Assembly (NCBI GenBank): GCA_965215275.1
Contig: OZ244044.1
Location: 1,440,001 to 1,504,000, forward strand
Direction of reading: 5' to 3'
Source: Thermodesulfobacteriota bacterium
GTDB lineage: Bacteria; Desulfobacterota_D; UBA1144; Nemesobacterales; JAJCZQ01
DNA: 64,000 nucleotides
Below the pieces are notes generated by a model. That model worked only from the letters and a program-made list of their open reading frames with translations, was not told the origin of the DNA and did not search any database. Numbering within the stretch: the stretch's first letter is position 1; every line of letters begins with the position of its first letter. The position numbers were made by a program, and so were the translations under genes. Shown in pieces: positions 1,464-50,140 of the stretch.

Positions 1464-1496
1464 TGGAATTATATAGTTAAGTTGACAAGAAAGAAC

Positions 1497-1525
1497 TTGT
1501 AAAATTGGTCAGAAAATGGTAGTAT
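1497..1525 (+). promoter_or_regulatory. Putative sigma70 promoter of tnpB (probably leaderless mRNA)
   Basis: TTGTAA (1497-1502), 17 bp, TAGTAT (1520-1525) with TG extension; ATG 6 nt after the -10 box. Confidence 0.45.
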
Positions 1526-1531
1526 TATAGC

Positions 1532-2755
1532 ATGGTTAGAACGATTACAAGAACTGTAAAGGCAGATAGTGGTTTTCATAAAAGGCTGGATGAATTCTTA
1601 AATCAGCTTACCGATCTGTATAACAGTGCCTTGTACCATAGGTTAAAATCCTGGGATTGGTATGGAAGAACTATCTCTAAATACGAACAGTTTAACGAAC
1701 TAACTGAGGTCCGAGAGCAAGACAAGGGATTTGAAAAGTTTAATGCGGTAGCTCAAAGAAGCGTTCTGGAAAGACTGGATAATGCATATAGTCCTTATTT
1801 GAGCTATTTAAGGAATAAAAAAGCAGGTAAGAAGGTAAGGAAGGTTGGCAGACCTAAATATAAAAGTTCAAACAGACCAGTTCGTTCATTTGAAACAAAC
1901 AATTATAAAAACATAAAGAAGACAGGCAGAAGAACATATTTAACGATAAAGGGACTTGGCAGATTATCTTTCAAAGGTAGTATGCCAGAGTGTGTTTGTT
2001 TGAAAGCACCTAAAACAATAATAAGAGTAATTCAAAGTTCGTTAAGAATTAAGCTCCAGTTTCTGTGTGAGTTTACAGATGAGAAGAAGAGACCTTTGGA
2101 TAAATCCATAGGGATAGATCTTGGAATAACAAACAGATTAGCTTTTTCAGATGGAACTAAAGTTCCCGGTATCAGGATAGACAGGAAGGAACTGAAAAGA
2201 AAGCAAAGAATTGTTTCAAGAGCGGTAAAAGGTTCTGACAGCAGAAAGAAGAAAGTTTTATCGTTAGCGAAGGAATGGGAACGAACTACCGATCGTGAAA
2301 ATAATGCTATACACAGATTAACAACAGAGACCGTAAAGAAGAGTAATCATATAAAATTAGAGGATTTGAATATACAAGGAATGGTAAAGAACCATCATCT
2401 TGCTAAATCCATAACGGAACAGCAATGGGGTAAGATCAAACATCAACTTGCTTACAAAGCCGAGATAGCTGGAGGCAAGCTGGTTTTAGTTAAAGCTCAT
2501 TATACAACAAGAGCCTGTTCTGAATGTGGAAAGATAAATCCAAAACTGCCTTTGTATCAAAGAGTATTTAACTGTATATATTGCGGTTATTCAGAAGACA
2601 GGGATATAAATGCAGGTAAAAATATCAATACTCTTAATGAAGGAGACTTCATGTCGGGCGGGAATAAGGTAGCAATACTCCCGATGAGTGCTAAGAGTAT
2701 CAGATCAAAAGAGAACAGGGATAGAGGAACTCTGCACTCAGAACAGTATAGGTAA
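1532..2755 (+). CDS. tnpB: RNA-guided endonuclease TnpB (IS200/IS605 OrfB-like), 407 aa
   Basis: RuvC-I IGIDLG, RuvC-II KLEDL, zinc ribbon CSEC...CIYC, RuvC-III DRDINA; all three catalytic acidic residues present; no tnpA nearby. Confidence 0.93.
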   Translation: MVRTITRTVKADSGFHKRLDEFLNQLTDLYNSALYHRLKSWDWYGRTISKYEQFNELTEVREQDKGFEKFNAVAQRSVLERLDNAYSPYLSYLRNKKAGKKVRKVGRPKYKSSNRPVRSFETNNYKNIKKTGRRTYLTIKGLGRLSFKGSMPECVCLKAPKTIIRVIQSSLRIKLQFLCEFTDEKKRPLDKSIGIDLGITNRLAFSDGTKVPGIRIDRKELKRKQRIVSRAVKGSDSRKKKVLSLAKEWERTTDRENNAIHRLTTETVKKSNHIKLEDLNIQGMVKNHHLAKSITEQQWGKIKHQLAYKAEIAGGKLVLVKAHYTTRACSECGKINPKLPLYQRVFNCIYCGYSEDRDINAGKNINTLNEGDFMSGGNKVAILPMSAKSIRSKENRDRGTLHSEQYR

Positions 2756-2802
2756 GTTTGTCTACTTAACTATATAATTCCCTTAAATAAGTTCATCTTA
2801 TG
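2650..2802 (+). ncRNA. Predicted TnpB omegaRNA scaffold overlapping the tnpB 3' end, plus about 20 nt putative guide from the flank; boundaries approximate
   Basis: Stems TGAGTGC(2685-91)/GCACTCA(2734-40) and 2747-2774; conserved with compensatory or G-U changes at 44830-44963; canonical omegaRNA position. Confidence 0.65.
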
Positions 2803-42201: not shown

Positions 42202-42224
42202 TCATTCAGGATACAAAGTAAAAT
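42195..42224 (+). promoter_or_regulatory. Sigma70 promoter shared by the S8-like paralogs (copies at 46277, 46438, 54438, 56496)
   Basis: TTGACA, 17-18 bp, TAAAAT found five times; each is followed 9-10 nt later by an ATG. Confidence 0.75.
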
Positions 42225-42234
42225 GAAACAAGTT

Positions 42235-44283
42235 ATGAACATCTTATTTCGAATAATACCCCCCCCCTTCCCATCTAAGTCAGTAATTCCCTTTTTCTTT
42301 CTTCTGTGTTTTGTATCTATTGAGGCATATGGCCAGAGTAGTAATTGTAATGCCAATGCAAATATTGATGCTACGCTGACATTGGATGGAGGTAACAAAG
42401 TTGTGACCTTCCAAGCTAATGGAGGACTGAATTACTATCAGATAGACCTGACAGTCCCCGTTATCATAAATATAGATGGAATGGTCAATTCTACCACCTC
42501 CAATAACGTGCAAGCCAGTTTAGAGTTGTGTAACAGCAATGATGATCTGATAACAAGTGTAAGTGGCGGTGGCAGTGCAGATGTAGAATTGGATATTACA
42601 GCAGTTTACCTGATCCCGGGAACTTACTATATTGTTGTGAAAAGCAATGTAGCTGGAGCATCTGATGTTGAAGTTATAAAAGAAGCAGATGCATGTAGGA
42701 CTACTACCAGTTTCAATGATCCCTTATACGGCTGTCAGTGGCATCTGAAAAACACAGGACAGCTCGGGGATATAACTAGCTCTGGAGAAGATATAAACGT
42801 AGAAGGGGTGTGGGATGATAATGTATTCGGTGCTGGAATTAACGTGGCAGTGGTAGATGATGGTATGCAGACGGGTCATGAGGACCTTACTGATAATGTA
42901 AATACCAGCCTGAATCATGATTATTCAGGGAACAATGACGTATACGACCCTTCAAAAGCTCGTGGTACACGTGTATCGGGAGTTATAGCAGCAACAGGTG
43001 ATAACAGCCTTGGAGTAAGAGGCGCAGCACCCCAGGCAGGCATCTATAGTTATAACTTAGCTGGTAATTTAACTTCCGCTAACGCAAAGGATGCTATGAT
43101 CCGTAACAGAGATACAACGGCCGTATCCGTCAATAACTGGGGACCGGAGGACACGTCTGTTCTTATAGAGGCTTCATCAGAGTGGGAGGAAGGAGTGGGA
43201 ATGGGTATAAGTGAAGGGCTTGGTGGTAAAGGGGTATTTTACGTGTGGGCGACTGGAAACAGAGGTGACAACCGCGGTCAGGCTAATTTTGATGAATATT
43301 CCAACTACTACGCAGTAACTGCCGTATGTTCGGTAGATAGAGAAGGAAACAAAAGTTCTTTTTCAGAAGAGGGAGTAAATCTGTGGGTATGTGCTCCAGG
43401 TGAAGATATTACAACTACTGATAATAACGATGGATATATTTTTGATGCAAGTGGAACGGCATATTCAGCAGCGCAGGTTGCAGGTGTGGCGGCACTGATG
43501 AGAGAGGTAAACAGTGATCTTAGCTGGAGAGACCTTAAACTGATACTTGCAGCTTCAGCCCGTAAGAACGACGGTTCTGACACGGGCTGGGAGACAGGGG
43601 CACATAAATACGGTTCTGATACAGAAAGTTATAATTACAACCCTAAGTACGGTTTTGGTGTGGTAGATGCTGAAGCAGCAGTAGGGCTTGCTGAAAGCTG
43701 GACTAATGTTCCAAGGATGAGAACTCAGACCGCTTCTTCTGGAACTATTGATATGGCAATCCCCGACTACAATGACGCAACTTCAACAGACGGAGTACTT
43801 GTTTCCAGACTGACAATACCAGATACTTCTCTTTCTTTTACAGAGTTTGTAGAGGTAGAGCTTAATTTCTCTCACACATACTTACCAGACCTGAACATAC
43901 AGATAACCTCTCCTGACGGTACTGTGTCGCAACTTACTGAGATAGATTCAAACAGCTTTGGTTACACAGATAAAACTCATCGTTTTGGTTCAGCCAGGCA
44001 CCTTGGAGAAGACCCTGCTGGAGAATGGACTTTGAAAATATCTGACACTGTTTCTGACGATACAGGGACGTTACACTCGTGGAGCATTAAAGTCTATGGT
44101 CACAGTAAGGAAGATACAGTACGAAGACCAGGAACACCAGGTGCTGATTCAGGTGGAGGAGGATGTGCGGTCTCCGATCAGAGAGGCGTTATTCCTGATC
44201 TGCTCGGAGCAGTGGCATGTCTGATGCTTATACCTGTATCTGTAGTGATCAGAAGGAAGATAAGGTCTCATATAAAGATGTAA
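42235..44283 (+). CDS. Exported S8/kexin-like pseudo-protease with P-domain and C-terminal anchor (paralog A)
   Basis: DPLYGCQWHL, VAVVDDG, RGT in place of HGT, GTAY in place of GTSM, P-domain, GGGGC-TM-basic tail; ATG 42223 overlaps the -10 box so 42235 is preferred. Confidence 0.85.
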   Translation: MNILFRIIPPPFPSKSVIPFFFLLCFVSIEAYGQSSNCNANANIDATLTLDGGNKVVTFQANGGLNYYQIDLTVPVIINIDGMVNSTTSNNVQASLELCNSNDDLITSVSGGGSADVELDITAVYLIPGTYYIVVKSNVAGASDVEVIKEADACRTTTSFNDPLYGCQWHLKNTGQLGDITSSGEDINVEGVWDDNVFGAGINVAVVDDGMQTGHEDLTDNVNTSLNHDYSGNNDVYDPSKARGTRVSGVIAATGDNSLGVRGAAPQAGIYSYNLAGNLTSANAKDAMIRNRDTTAVSVNNWGPEDTSVLIEASSEWEEGVGMGISEGLGGKGVFYVWATGNRGDNRGQANFDEYSNYYAVTAVCSVDREGNKSSFSEEGVNLWVCAPGEDITTTDNNDGYIFDASGTAYSAAQVAGVAALMREVNSDLSWRDLKLILAASARKNDGSDTGWETGAHKYGSDTESYNYNPKYGFGVVDAEAAVGLAESWTNVPRMRTQTASSGTIDMAIPDYNDATSTDGVLVSRLTIPDTSLSFTEFVEVELNFSHTYLPDLNIQITSPDGTVSQLTEIDSNSFGYTDKTHRFGSARHLGEDPAGEWTLKISDTVSDDTGTLHSWSIKVYGHSKEDTVRRPGTPGADSGGGGCAVSDQRGVIPDLLGAVACLMLIPVSVVIRRKIRSHIKM

Positions 44284-44689: not shown

Positions 44690-44742
44690 CTATTCTCTCC
44701 TTATAGTTTTATATACACTCCATTTTTTACATTAATAAGTAT

Positions 44743-44963
44743 AGGAATTATAAAGATTGATTTACAAGAAATAAAATTTTTAATAATAAGCATTAGGAAA
44801 ATCAGAATATCCATAACGGATATAAATCTGTATCGGGTGGAGCAGTTAAAATGGGGAAAAGACTCCCGGTGGGTGCTATGGGTATTTTAAAATCAAAAGA
44901 ACAAGAGGAACTTTGCACTCAGAACGGTAAAGGTATTGTCGTCGGACGATCTTTATAGTTCTC
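44743..44963 (+). mobile_element. 221-bp MITE carrying a TnpB omegaRNA-like scaffold but no ORF
   Basis: Ends AGGAATTATAAAGATTG and (rev. comp.) GAGAACTATAAAGATCG; degenerate TSD ATAAGTAT/ACAAGCAT; blocks 20/24 and 29/32 identical to the tnpB 3' end. Confidence 0.8.
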
Positions 44964-45100
44964 ACAAGCATATAAGATTGACGGCGATATGATCAGTCTG
45001 AATAACAGCGGTATTTAACTGATTTGCAATCCAACGAGATTTAGTAGACAGTATTACCCGCACAAATTATATTTTGTAAAATTTATTAAGCTATATAAGA

Positions 45101-46561: not shown

Positions 46562-49500
46562 ATGACAATGCTTAAGTTCATATCCCCCCCCCCGTCTAAG
46601 TCCATACTTCCCCTTGTCCTTTTCCTTCTGTGCGTAATCACCGTGGTTGCAAGTGGACAGGGCAGTGAAAAGGACCCGTTCTCCGAATGCAGGGGTATCA
46701 GTGCAGACGCGGAAGATCCGCTGTACGGATGTCAGTGGCATCTGAGGAACACTGGACAGCTTAGTTATTCCGGAAAGAGGACAACTGCGGGAGAGGATAT
46801 AAACGTGGAGGGAGTGTGGAACGACGGGATATCCGGTGCCGGGATCAATATAGCAGTGGCAGGTGACGGCGTCGACCTTTCCCATGAGGACCTTTCTGCG
46901 AACGTCCGTTCCGGACCGAACCACAGTTTTTCTGGAAAAAACAATTCCGGAAAGAACAGTTTTGAGAAAAACAATTCAGAAAGCGGTGATCTTTCCGATA
47001 GTTCATCCCTTACCGGAACGCGAGCAGCAGGAGTAATAGCAGCAACTGGATATAACGGACTGGGAGTAAGAGGAGTTGCACCTGGTGCTAGTATATACAG
47101 TAATGAGTTAACAGAAGATCTCAGTGAAACAGAAGCAATGGTGCGTAATAAAGAAATAACTGCAGTATCCGTTAACGACCGGGGATCTGAGGAGGGAGTT
47201 TTATTACAGGGGGCTTCGGCTGAGTGGGAAGAGGGAGTGGAAGAGGGTATAAGGGAAGGGTTTTACGGCAGGGGAATATTTTACGTCCTGGGAGCAGGGG
47301 ACGGACATGAGAGCGGAGATCAGGCTAATTTTTCTGAATATTCCAACTATTACGGTGTAACGGCGGTATGTTCAACTGACGGCTTTGGAAAGAAGAGTAT
47401 ATTTTCAGAAGAGGGAGTAAATCTCTGGGTATGTGCACCTGGTTCTGATATTGTGACCACTGATAACGACGACGGCTACGCCGTGGCTTCCGGAACATTT
47501 CTTTCAGCTTCACAGGTTGGAGGAGTGGCAGCACTGCTGAGAGAAATAAATGGAAACCTGAGCTGGAGGGATATAAAGCTTATACTTGCGGGTTCGGCAC
47601 GGCAGAACGATCTTTCTGACATGAGCTGGGAGACAGGAGCATTTAAATACGGTTCTGATACTGAAAGATATAATTATAACCCTAAGTATGGTTTTGGTGT
47701 GGTAGACGCGGAGGCGGCCGCAGAGCTTGCCGGAAGCTGGAAAGGAGTGGGAGAAATGAGGACCGTTACAGCTTCCTCGGATAATGAACTGACGATCCCT
47801 GATGGAGAAGGAGAGGCGGACGGGGTCCTTACCTCCAGACTTATGATTTCGGACCTGGAGGAAATATTTACGGAGTTCGTTGAGGTAGAACTCGTTCTCT
47901 CGTGTGACTGCCTGCAGGACCTCAATATACGGATAACCTCTCCTTCCGGGACAGTATCGGAACTTGTGCGGGAGTCTGCCAGTGAGTTTGTAAGGGGATC
48001 TTCGAATGAAGAAAACGACTGCGTCAGTTACCTGGGGAAAAAACATCGTTTCGGTTCGGCAAGACACCTCGGGGAAGACCCTTCCGGAGAATGGACCCTT
48101 AAGATATATAATACTGCTTCCGGAGATGAAGAAGATACAGAAAATACCGTTACCCTGCACTCATGGAGCATCAGGGTATACGGGCACGGGAAGGGGGATA
48201 CTTTAACGGACTTTGGCGGGGAGATCACTGCCAAGGCTTTAACTTTGGGTAATGTTCCTGGTGGTAGGCTGACCTGGACGCAACATAAGCTGGTAAACGC
48301 AAGGTTATTCGAGGCAGCCGGAGGCAGGCCGCCGTATACTTACAGTTTAGCTCCTTTACCTCCTGGATTGAATTTTAACGGAACCACCAGAATTATAAAC
48401 GGGAGACCGACCGCTGCAGGTGACACCGACGTTCAGTATACGGCAAGAGACGCAAATAACGATACGGCACGGAGTGACTTCGTTATAAGGATAACGGCGA
48501 ACGCCGCGCCGGTTTTTGGCAGCAAGACGGTTGCTGCTCAGGTGTACACGGCAAGGAAAGCAATAGAACCATTGGAACTTCCCGAGGCAACGGGAGGGGA
48601 TGGAACCTTGACTTACAATATAAGTGGTAACGTCAGGGGTATAGGGTTGAACTTTAACCGTAACACAAGGATACTGAGCGGAATGCCCACCAGTGTTACG
48701 CCTGGTATTACAGCCGTTTATACCGCCACTGACGCAGATGGAGATACTGCCGAACTGAGGTTCAATATACGGGTAAGACATCAGAACGACATACCGACCT
48801 TTGGCAGTCAGACGGTAGATGATCAGAATTGGGTTAACGGCAGTGCAGTAAGGCTAACGCTGCCTCGTGCAAGAAACGGGAACGGAACGTTAATTTACAG
48901 TTTAGGGCTTGCCGTTAACATGAATGCATTACTTGCCGGACTGGATTTTAACAGAAACACCAGAGTGTTAAGCGGAACGCTCAGGATACCCCCGGCGGCA
49001 ATACCTCCTGCTGGGATTACACACAGATATACGGTAACGGACAGTGATAACGATACTCATGAAAGTGATTCTGACAGTTTGACCTTCGGGATCACTGTAT
49101 CAGCGGACGCAATGCCGACCTTTAGCAGTGAGACGATAGATGATAAGGAATACATAGCAGGAAGTCAGATAAAGCCGGTAACGCTGCCAGTGGCAACATC
49201 GGGGAATACTCCGTTAACCTACGGTATAACCCCTGCTTTGCCTGATGGACTGGACTTTGATCCTGCTACCCGGGTGCTGAGCGGAACACCGACCACTGCG
49301 ATGTCTCAGACTACCTATACATATACAGTAACGGACGTAGATGACGACCCGGCTGAGTTAACGTTTGATATCACTGTATCAGCGGACGCAATGCCGACCT
49401 TCGGCGGTGCGACGATAGAAGACAGGACGACCGTTAACGGCGTTACGGCAGTAATGGAAACACTGCCTCTTGCAACAGGAGGGAACGGAACGCTGACTTA

Positions 49501-50140
49501 CAGTTTAACTGATGCCGGTTCAAATGCTTTGAATTTATTTGCCGGACTGGACTTTGATGAAAACACCCGGGTGCTGAGCGGAACACCCGATATCGGTTCA
49601 GCGTTCCTTGATCTGCTTCCCGTAACCGAGACCTATACGTGGATGGTAGCGGACGAAGATGAAGACATGGACGAGTTGACGTTCAGTATAATTATAGAAG
49701 CAGACAGCGAACCTGACCTCAGCGGTGAGACGATAGATGATCAGGTGTACACGGGGACCCCTGTAACTCTTCCTGAGGCAACGGGAGGGAACCCGCCGTT
49801 AAGATACAGTATAATGCCTCGTTTACCAGATGGATTGAGTTTTGATCCTGCTACCAGAAGGATAAGCGGGACACCGACTGCTGCAGCACCTGAGAATACT
49901 TACACGTACACGGTAACGGACAGCAATGACGACGTGGACGTGTTGACTTTCAGGCTCAGTGCAGTTCCGCCACGAGGACCGATGACGTCAGATACCGGTT
50001 CAGGCGGAGGTGGAGGAGGATGTGCCGTCTCGGATCAGAGCAGCGTTGCTTCTGATATCTTTGGAGCAGTGGCATTTCTGATGCTCATACCCGTGTCAGT
50101 ATTTATCAGAAGGAGAAGAAGACCTCATATAAAGACATAG
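46562..50140 (+). CDS. Exported S8/kexin-like pseudo-protease with P-domain, 6 putative Ig-like (He_PIG-type) repeats and anchor (paralog B)
   Basis: Triad positions read AGDG, TGT, GTFL; repeats of the LPDGLDFDPATRVLSGTPT type; GGGGGCAVSDQ tail. Confidence 0.87.
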   Translation: MTMLKFISPPPSKSILPLVLFLLCVITVVASGQGSEKDPFSECRGISADAEDPLYGCQWHLRNTGQLSYSGKRTTAGEDINVEGVWNDGISGAGINIAVAGDGVDLSHEDLSANVRSGPNHSFSGKNNSGKNSFEKNNSESGDLSDSSSLTGTRAAGVIAATGYNGLGVRGVAPGASIYSNELTEDLSETEAMVRNKEITAVSVNDRGSEEGVLLQGASAEWEEGVEEGIREGFYGRGIFYVLGAGDGHESGDQANFSEYSNYYGVTAVCSTDGFGKKSIFSEEGVNLWVCAPGSDIVTTDNDDGYAVASGTFLSASQVGGVAALLREINGNLSWRDIKLILAGSARQNDLSDMSWETGAFKYGSDTERYNYNPKYGFGVVDAEAAAELAGSWKGVGEMRTVTASSDNELTIPDGEGEADGVLTSRLMISDLEEIFTEFVEVELVLSCDCLQDLNIRITSPSGTVSELVRESASEFVRGSSNEENDCVSYLGKKHRFGSARHLGEDPSGEWTLKIYNTASGDEEDTENTVTLHSWSIRVYGHGKGDTLTDFGGEITAKALTLGNVPGGRLTWTQHKLVNARLFEAAGGRPPYTYSLAPLPPGLNFNGTTRIINGRPTAAGDTDVQYTARDANNDTARSDFVIRITANAAPVFGSKTVAAQVYTARKAIEPLELPEATGGDGTLTYNISGNVRGIGLNFNRNTRILSGMPTSVTPGITAVYTATDADGDTAELRFNIRVRHQNDIPTFGSQTVDDQNWVNGSAVRLTLPRARNGNGTLIYSLGLAVNMNALLAGLDFNRNTRVLSGTLRIPPAAIPPAGITHRYTVTDSDNDTHESDSDSLTFGITVSADAMPTFSSETIDDKEYIAGSQIKPVTLPVATSGNTPLTYGITPALPDGLDFDPATRVLSGTPTTAMSQTTYTYTVTDVDDDPAELTFDITVSADAMPTFGGATIEDRTTVNGVTAVMETLPLATGGNGTLTYSLTDAGSNALNLFAGLDFDENTRVLSGTPDIGSAFLDLLPVTETYTWMVADEDEDMDELTFSIIIEADSEPDLSGETIDDQVYTGTPVTLPEATGGNPPLRYSIMPRLPDGLSFDPATRRISGTPTAAAPENTYTYTVTDSNDDVDVLTFRLSAVPPRGPMTSDTGSGGGGGGCAVSDQSSVASDIFGAVAFLMLIPVSVFIRRRRRPHIKT

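Follow-up and report, generated by a model that had tools for sequence, protein, structure and literature searches.

Non-autonomous derivatives of the IS1595 family, MITEs among them, are as a concept short and gene-less, with inverted ends like those of autonomous IS1595 elements; PATEs are not known to have a target duplication.

Gene-less and stand-alone omegaRNA elements are already known from the literature. The stand-alone omegaRNAs of OMEGA systems, as 2021 work is summarised in the main text of PMC10691335, are evidently mobilised and work in trans, and PATE-like IS200/IS605 elements are reported to encode omegaRNAs (Meers et al., bioRxiv 10.1101/2023.03.14.532601). For the TnpB branches DDE-1 to DDE-6 the same main text places TnpB within inverted terminal repeats, with solo copies moved in trans, and its supplement gives a TA motif 8 bp upstream for the DDE-5 ends (PMC10691335); the name IS1595 has 0 occurrences in the main text, and a search by title and abstract of a partial literature collection found no paper on TnpB in IS1595 ends.

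We analysed a gene-less element of 221 bp located at 44743-44963 of the window (the whole stretch of 64,000 nt; coordinates are those of the window unless a genome position is named). The preliminary description had taken it for a stand-alone omegaRNA MITE, a mobile cassette that brings guides to TnpB encoded elsewhere. We consider it, with a probability of about 0.8, to be a gene-less internal-deletion remnant of an IS1595-ended tnpB element, present in a single copy, most likely immobile and decaying without selection. What stands of the earlier view is an ORF-less tnpB derivative bearing an omegaRNA; the word ‘mobile’ does not, there being one copy only.

Comparison with described systems points both ways. 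As in the case of stand-alone omegaRNAs, a scaffold lies in transposon ends with neither effector nor transposase, the effector being encoded elsewhere in the genome; those RNAs, however, are described as evidently mobilised and active in trans, while the present element is single-copy, worn, unconstrained and bounded by inverted repeats of IS1595 type (PMC10691335). With PATEs it shares the state of a gene-less deletion derivative keeping both ends and an omegaRNA, but PATE ends are hairpins for a Y1 transposase, whereas here we see inverted repeats and an 8-bp duplication (10.1101/2023.03.14.532601). The TA of DDE-5 ends (PMC10691335) is found also before the element and some copies of its family, though subfamily A of this family has TG. 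The likeness to an IS1595 MITE lies in short length, absence of genes, inverted ends of ∼25 bp as in autonomous IS1595 elements and the 8-bp duplication; the differences are that copy number did not expand and that the interior derives from a tnpB passenger, not from a transposase gene. Of the traits of an IS1595-type derivative, shared inverted ends (worn, 16/25), an 8-bp duplication and an empty site are all present, and amplification as a unit, typical for a MITE, was not seen in the genome, where the element is single-copy.

A tnpB-family element inserted at this locus; nearly all of tnpB is gone, and the left end is now joined to the last codons of the gene, the scaffold and the right end. 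The features of the locus, and those of a full-length relative in the same window, are as follows.

44735..44742, + strand: left copy of the 8-bp target-site duplication, with TA before it at 44733-34; the 8-mer is present once at the empty site in G001
44743..44767, + strand: left terminal inverted repeat of IS1595 type, its first base differing from the GGG tip of the family
44768..44797, + strand: remainder of the left end, which is reduced in length relative to full-length copies and lacks their -35/17/-10 site (element positions 34-58)
44798..44832, + strand: what remains of the 3′-terminal tnpB codons, past the RuvC-III aspartate; frame NIHNGYKSVSGG against NINTLNEGDFMSGG in TnpB
44833..44963, + strand: omegaRNA-like scaffold with predicted P1 (44833-37/44865-69), P2 (44870-76/44915-21), P3 (44904-07/44911-14), terminal stem (44927-34/44949-56) and damaged pseudoknot (44839-42/44960-63)
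44939..44963, - strand: right terminal inverted repeat; the terminal stem and the pseudoknot strand overlap with it, and its tip is worn
44964..44983, + strand: right target-site duplication (44964-71, 6/8 to the left copy) and would-be guide
1464..2782, + strand: full-length tnpB element of subfamily A, inverted ends 23/25, TG just upstream
1532..2755, + strand: tnpB, 407 aa, with PF01385, PF07282 and the D-E-D motifs
2654..2782, + strand: omegaRNA-like scaffold belonging to this full-length element; it stops at the repeat tip

No ORF of at least 60 aa was found inside 44743-44963, as had been claimed for the 221-bp unit, and no effector or transposase gene is present in the element or adjacent to it; its neighbours are a 93-codon gene (- strand) on one side and a radical-SAM gene on the other. 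The inverted arms, 44745-57/44949-61, agree at 92%, and the flanking 8-mers are identical in six of eight positions, in line with the duplication reported before. At the orthologous site in G001, the sole same-genus genome among 40 related genomes searched, the two neighbour genes are found, but no element lies between them and there is a single 8-mer; the element is therefore a true insertion. A carried-over spacer as the origin of the right 8-mer is ruled out by the same empty site. BLASTN of the element against the 1.99-Mb genome gave an E-value of 3e-9 across 84 nt, and the similarity to the 3′-end of tnpB that had been pointed out was recovered in full: 20/24 identical bases between 44862-85 and 2677-2700, and 29/32 between 44904-35 and 2723-54. 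Elsewhere in the window, a CRISPR array with a 36-bp repeat extends from 3416 onward; judging by sequence motifs, the genes after it are presumably cas2 and cas1.

The ends are worn. The left repeat matches a tnpB element end in G001 at 22 of 25 positions and its own right end at 16; the right repeat matches the G001 end at 19 of 25, and its terminal base is changed further in strain X9. Agreement between the two ends of one element, 16/25 here, is 22-25/25 in each of the 13 copies tabulated from the 16 full-length ones, and the element is changed at both tips; a 6/8 duplication occurs also in 2 of these 13 copies. The codon remnant at 44798..44832 matches a tnpB pseudogene at genome position 1113628, and we infer from sequence similarity a deletion junction near 44790-44800.

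The parent family consists of tnpB inside IS1595-type ends, and 16 full-length elements of it, in three subfamilies, are present in the genome. The copy at 1464-2782 has 25-bp inverted repeats and a perfect 8-bp duplication (1456-63/2783-90). In 15 of the 16 full-length copies the TnpB frame is uninterrupted and, by eye, the RuvC D, E and D motifs are there, so that TnpB encoded elsewhere, as assumed earlier, does exist, with intact catalytic motifs. Tips of the type GGGAATTATA and 8-bp duplications also bound several elements encoding an IS1595 transposase (PF12762), and the genome has 28 matches to PF12762 as opposed to one, weak, match to Y1; by this sequence evidence the tnpB elements would have been moved in trans by an IS1595 DDE transposase. 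A strict IS200/IS605 PATE, considered for the element, is excluded by the inverted repeats and 8-bp duplications seen family-wide, with Y1 represented by the one weak match. Related TnpBs with the same ends are present in another family of the order.

Of 8 subfamily A copies, 6 have TG just ahead of the duplication, against 0 of 12 non-tnpB IS1595-ended elements (P = 0.0007); in the tnpB family this TG is, from sequence, a predicted TAM signal. The right flank begins with T in 16/16 full-length tnpB copies versus 3/12 non-tnpB elements, and in a related family it begins with A in 7/7 copies.

Some other IS1595-type elements deserve mention. A distant TnpB lineage lies inside IS1595-type ends at genome positions 714634-715929, 1724035-1725337 and 202418-203706, with ∼28% identity and a different omegaRNA-like end, which suggests a separate capture. 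Further IS1595-ended elements carry passengers that we read by eye as methylase-HNH fusions, ABC ATPase and TPR proteins (L003, L004 and L002, genome 675417-678070, 1812584-1815955 and 17470-21955).

Regarding the scaffold, a covariance model built from 14 full-length copies with the element left out (R2) scored it at 67 bits, with E-value 1.1e-15; an earlier model, R1, contained the element, which made its 97 bits circular, and R2 was used for this reason. Folding of the + strand gave z = -2.1 (4 of 200 shuffles were as good), and of the - strand z = -0.3. Among the 15 full-length copies and the element, 97% of the 432 cells of P1, P2, P3, the terminal stem and the pseudoknot were paired, a level reached by 0/500 shuffles and compared with 34-56% in slid controls; as the copies are related, this figure counts as support and not as a probability. 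Three pairs of P2 changed on both sides across the copies. No Rfam match came near the gathering score, either for the element or for 11 relic loci.

The 5′ GGGA(A/C) of the family pairs with the last bases of the right repeat in a pseudoknot whose variable pair is A-U in 13 rows and C-G in 3. In the ISDra2 structure, as described in PMC10097598, bases -5 to -3 form a pseudoknot with the 5′ region; the tnpB family likewise ties the 3′-end of the scaffold to its 5′ region. This model predicts that the tip of the element is also the end of the scaffold, in which case the flank would be the guide. The geometry proposed earlier thus holds at family level, by pseudoknot covariation in full-length copies, and the same covariation, placing the scaffold end at the tip, rules out the inverted repeat itself as guide. 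The related proposal, that RNA structure co-evolves with the inverted repeat, can be kept in part: terminal stem and repeat do covary at family level, but selection on the structure of this copy is not supported.

In the element itself, P1, P2, P3 and the terminal stem all pair, several of the changes giving G-U. GGGA and CCC of the pseudoknot, invariant in 22/22 full-length copies, are changed, and the family register has one A-C mismatch and one G-U; a 5-bp pseudoknot in a shifted register is available at -4.6 kcal/mol (range in full-length copies, -3.8 to -8.6). According to the prediction, an extended terminal stem covers and buries the 3′-end, at -14.5 kcal/mol, compared with -4.7 to -12.8 kcal/mol in the other 21 correctly cut copies (one mis-cut row was dropped). 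Changes in otherwise invariant columns number 12 in the element, five of them in a poorly aligned loop, versus 10 in one divergent full-length copy. The 67 bits exceed the scores of most relics of its age (16-53 bits); full-length copies of a distant family, however, score only 24-38 bits, hence live and dead copies are not told apart by the covariance score.

The element is single-copy in the 1.99-Mb genome, other best matches being partial at 71-89%, and we found no second copy of the 221-bp unit in this genome or across the 40 related genomes. An iterated profile gave 44 hits at E ≤0.002, namely 16 full-length copies and 28 hits at 27 relic loci, the element being one of the latter; the reversed-genome control gave 0 hits. 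A duplication of at least 6/8 is kept at only 2 of the 27 relics, by an automated count with a crude choice of left ends, and long similarities among relics continue into flanking DNA. Structure-breaking decay, named in the preliminary description as the mark of a dead deletion derivative, is indeed what other relics display. Present mobility is not supported, given the single copy, the 16/25 ends and the change of both tips, and neither is a dispersed repertoire of guides.

In the tree, the element groups with relics only, and the 15 uninterrupted TnpB frames are elsewhere in the genome. Its nearest relative is not a full-length copy but another relic, at genome 767595-767741 (within L008:587-742, genome 767586-767741), with 100/121 identical positions and support of 99/98; the two share a scaffold deletion. 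The sister relic lacks a left end, so that the 221-bp unit may or may not have moved as such in earlier times. Its right flank resembles that of the element at 7/8 positions and the X9 allele at 6/8, possibly by chance; the idea of a conserved guide common to both loci is weakened by the latter figure. The sister relic also has a 23-nt tandem duplication in the scaffold, and a foreign repeat tip replaces its left part.

Deletion derivatives of other ages were observed as well. L020 (genome 1742862-1743187), younger and 326 bp long, derives from subfamily A; it has TG upstream and its 8-bp duplication is perfect, yet P2 pairs are already broken in it. In G021, from another family of the order, L068:1501-1619 is a short tnpB derivative that arose by a similar deletion and has an omegaRNA-like end. 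On a different note, the genome has 57 subtilase-like loci (window 42223-44283 and 46562-50140, genome 701394-704180, 1081951-1086077 and 1273849-1276602 among them). Several of these lie between IS1595-type tips, 15 of the 27 omegaRNA relics are within 3 kb of one, and in seven a 5′-half scaffold is situated between the tip and the 3′ trailer of the gene; given these observations, tnpB-derived ends may have carried the subtilase paralog family as cargo during its spread.

Constraint on the scaffold could be assessed with a second strain. In eight sequencing runs compared, only X9 spans the locus with differences: it has the same insertion, one 14.9-kb contig over the locus and 31 listed substitutions. 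X5, X7, X8 and X13 cover the element partially and show no difference; X11, X12 and X14 miss it or barely touch it. The X9 differences amount to 12/131 in the scaffold, 9/190 at other intergenic sites, 8/190 at synonymous and 0/389 at non-synonymous sites. Relative to synonymous sites the scaffold is not slower (P = 0.10, the deviation being towards faster change), and it changes much faster than constrained sites do (P = 4e-8). Two pairs are broken in X9, against 2.1 expected by random placement; counted by stem changes, 2 of 8 break a pair, against 3.4 expected (P = 0.25). There is no measurable constraint on the scaffold between the two strains, in a test of low power made on one strain pair. 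The notion that selection maintains the structure of this copy is not supported by these figures, with pair breaks near chance and scaffold changes at 12/131 beside 8/190 at synonymous sites.

The would-be guide in X9 has a substitution at 44969 (its sixth base) and an insertion after 44972 (the ninth base), and four extra bases are present in the left end, at the possible promoter. The first 56 bases of the element show zero substitutions, and the flanking duplication is 7/8 in X9 versus 6/8 in this genome.

The changes that had been cited as compensatory, TGGGTGC against GCACTCA, TAAAG against CTTTA and TATAAAG in the left repeat, are all there in the sequence. However, TATAAAG ends are seen in two full-length copies (genome 1624687 and 1834243) as well as in a tnpB end of G001, and TGGGTGC occurs also in relic 656135; being common to other copies, these are inherited subfamily states and not compensation that arose in this copy. 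One pair runs from A-U in the sister relic through G-U in X9 to G-C in this genome, a path that chance allows.

With worn ends, and mutation as fast as in neighbouring unconstrained DNA, the element looks like a dead relic rather than a mobile guide cassette. The course of events would be the following. The parent, a tnpB element whose family has inserted here, would have been moved in trans by an IS1595 DDE transposase, and internal deletion has left almost nothing of tnpB. The scaffold would have outlived the deletion through its overlap with the right end, its pairing dating from the active parent, whose subfamily appears to be without any full-length copy in this genome today. The repeat tips, pseudoknot, promoter region and guide have presumably drifted in the meantime, so that the element would neither transpose nor act as a maintained guide.

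One could suppose instead that the element is still transcribed, folded and loaded in trans by subfamily A TnpB as an extra guide or decoy, selected or not. Its main helices still pair, 95 of 119 scaffold positions are identical to a full-length subfamily A copy, 15/16 TnpB frames are uninterrupted, the left end contains a sigma-70-like pair matching at 10/12 with a 15-nt spacer, and stand-alone omegaRNAs act in trans in other systems, as PMC10691335 summarises. The -35/17/-10 pair at element positions 34-58 in 9 of 15 full-length left ends is missing along with this segment, and X9 has its four extra bases at the possible promoter. A strict promoter scan gave no + strand site in the element, a result that is uninformative, as the scan also missed the full-length window copy used as control. 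The guide begins with A, versus T in 16/16 full-length copies, and is preceded by TA, not by the TG of subfamily A; it is unstable between strains, the scaffold shows no constraint, and the pseudoknot is damaged in register. Within 3 mismatches the 20-nt guide matches nowhere else in the genome, and it has no exact match in viral contigs; nothing among plasmid and phage records matches element and guide, 8-nt seeds following TG or TA occur about as often as expected by chance, and metagenome scans with the TnpB protein and with the scaffold pattern gave no match. We regard loading in trans as unlikely. A broader version, in which an expressed omegaRNA-only cassette in IS1595 ends, its repeat tip serving as pseudoknot strand in the shifted register, is loaded together with better-kept relics by the 15 TnpBs as a pool of guides or decoys, seems to us improbable.

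A true MITE, multiplied as the 221-bp unit at an earlier time or in other strains, with dispersed guides and its last copy here, would agree with the strongly supported sister relic and its shared scaffold deletion, and with both ends and the duplication being recognisable. Yet without a left end in that relic a shared junction is not demonstrable, no second copy turned up in any genome searched, and deletion in place after insertion fits the data equally; we hold such a history to be unlikely. Even less credit is due to the idea that the insertion was kept for a role in cis, e.g. its left end giving an outward -35 to the 93-codon gene, which occupies 44689-44408 on the - strand, has no Pfam match and is kept in several related genomes. 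A promoter-like site does lie across the left junction (44738-44767, - strand, -35 at 44767 and -10 ending at 44738) and points at this gene, and the first 56 bases are without substitution in X9; but the scan gave 2 sites where 2.7 are expected by chance, G001 has the gene without the element, and a like outward site at a full-length copy may make this a general feature of the repeat. The internal-deletion remnant is the reading that we retain.

As a single locus the element matters little, since gene-less omegaRNA elements are already known and it looks dead. It is a useful negative example: compensation, apparent against a cousin copy, was inherited and no longer counted as evidence after comparison with a second strain. 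If a relic of this kind were active in trans, stand-alone omegaRNAs would be extended to DDE-type ends; if the pool of guides or decoys were real, it would constitute a DDE-transposon class of stand-alone omegaRNAs, with transposase recognition and RNA fold residing in the same bases. The more useful result concerns the parent family, in which the repeat tip co-varies with the 5′ pseudoknot strand, TG stands upstream and the flank starts with T; from these signals the TAM and the guide register can be predicted, in testable form, for a TnpB that depends on a DDE transposase for its movement.
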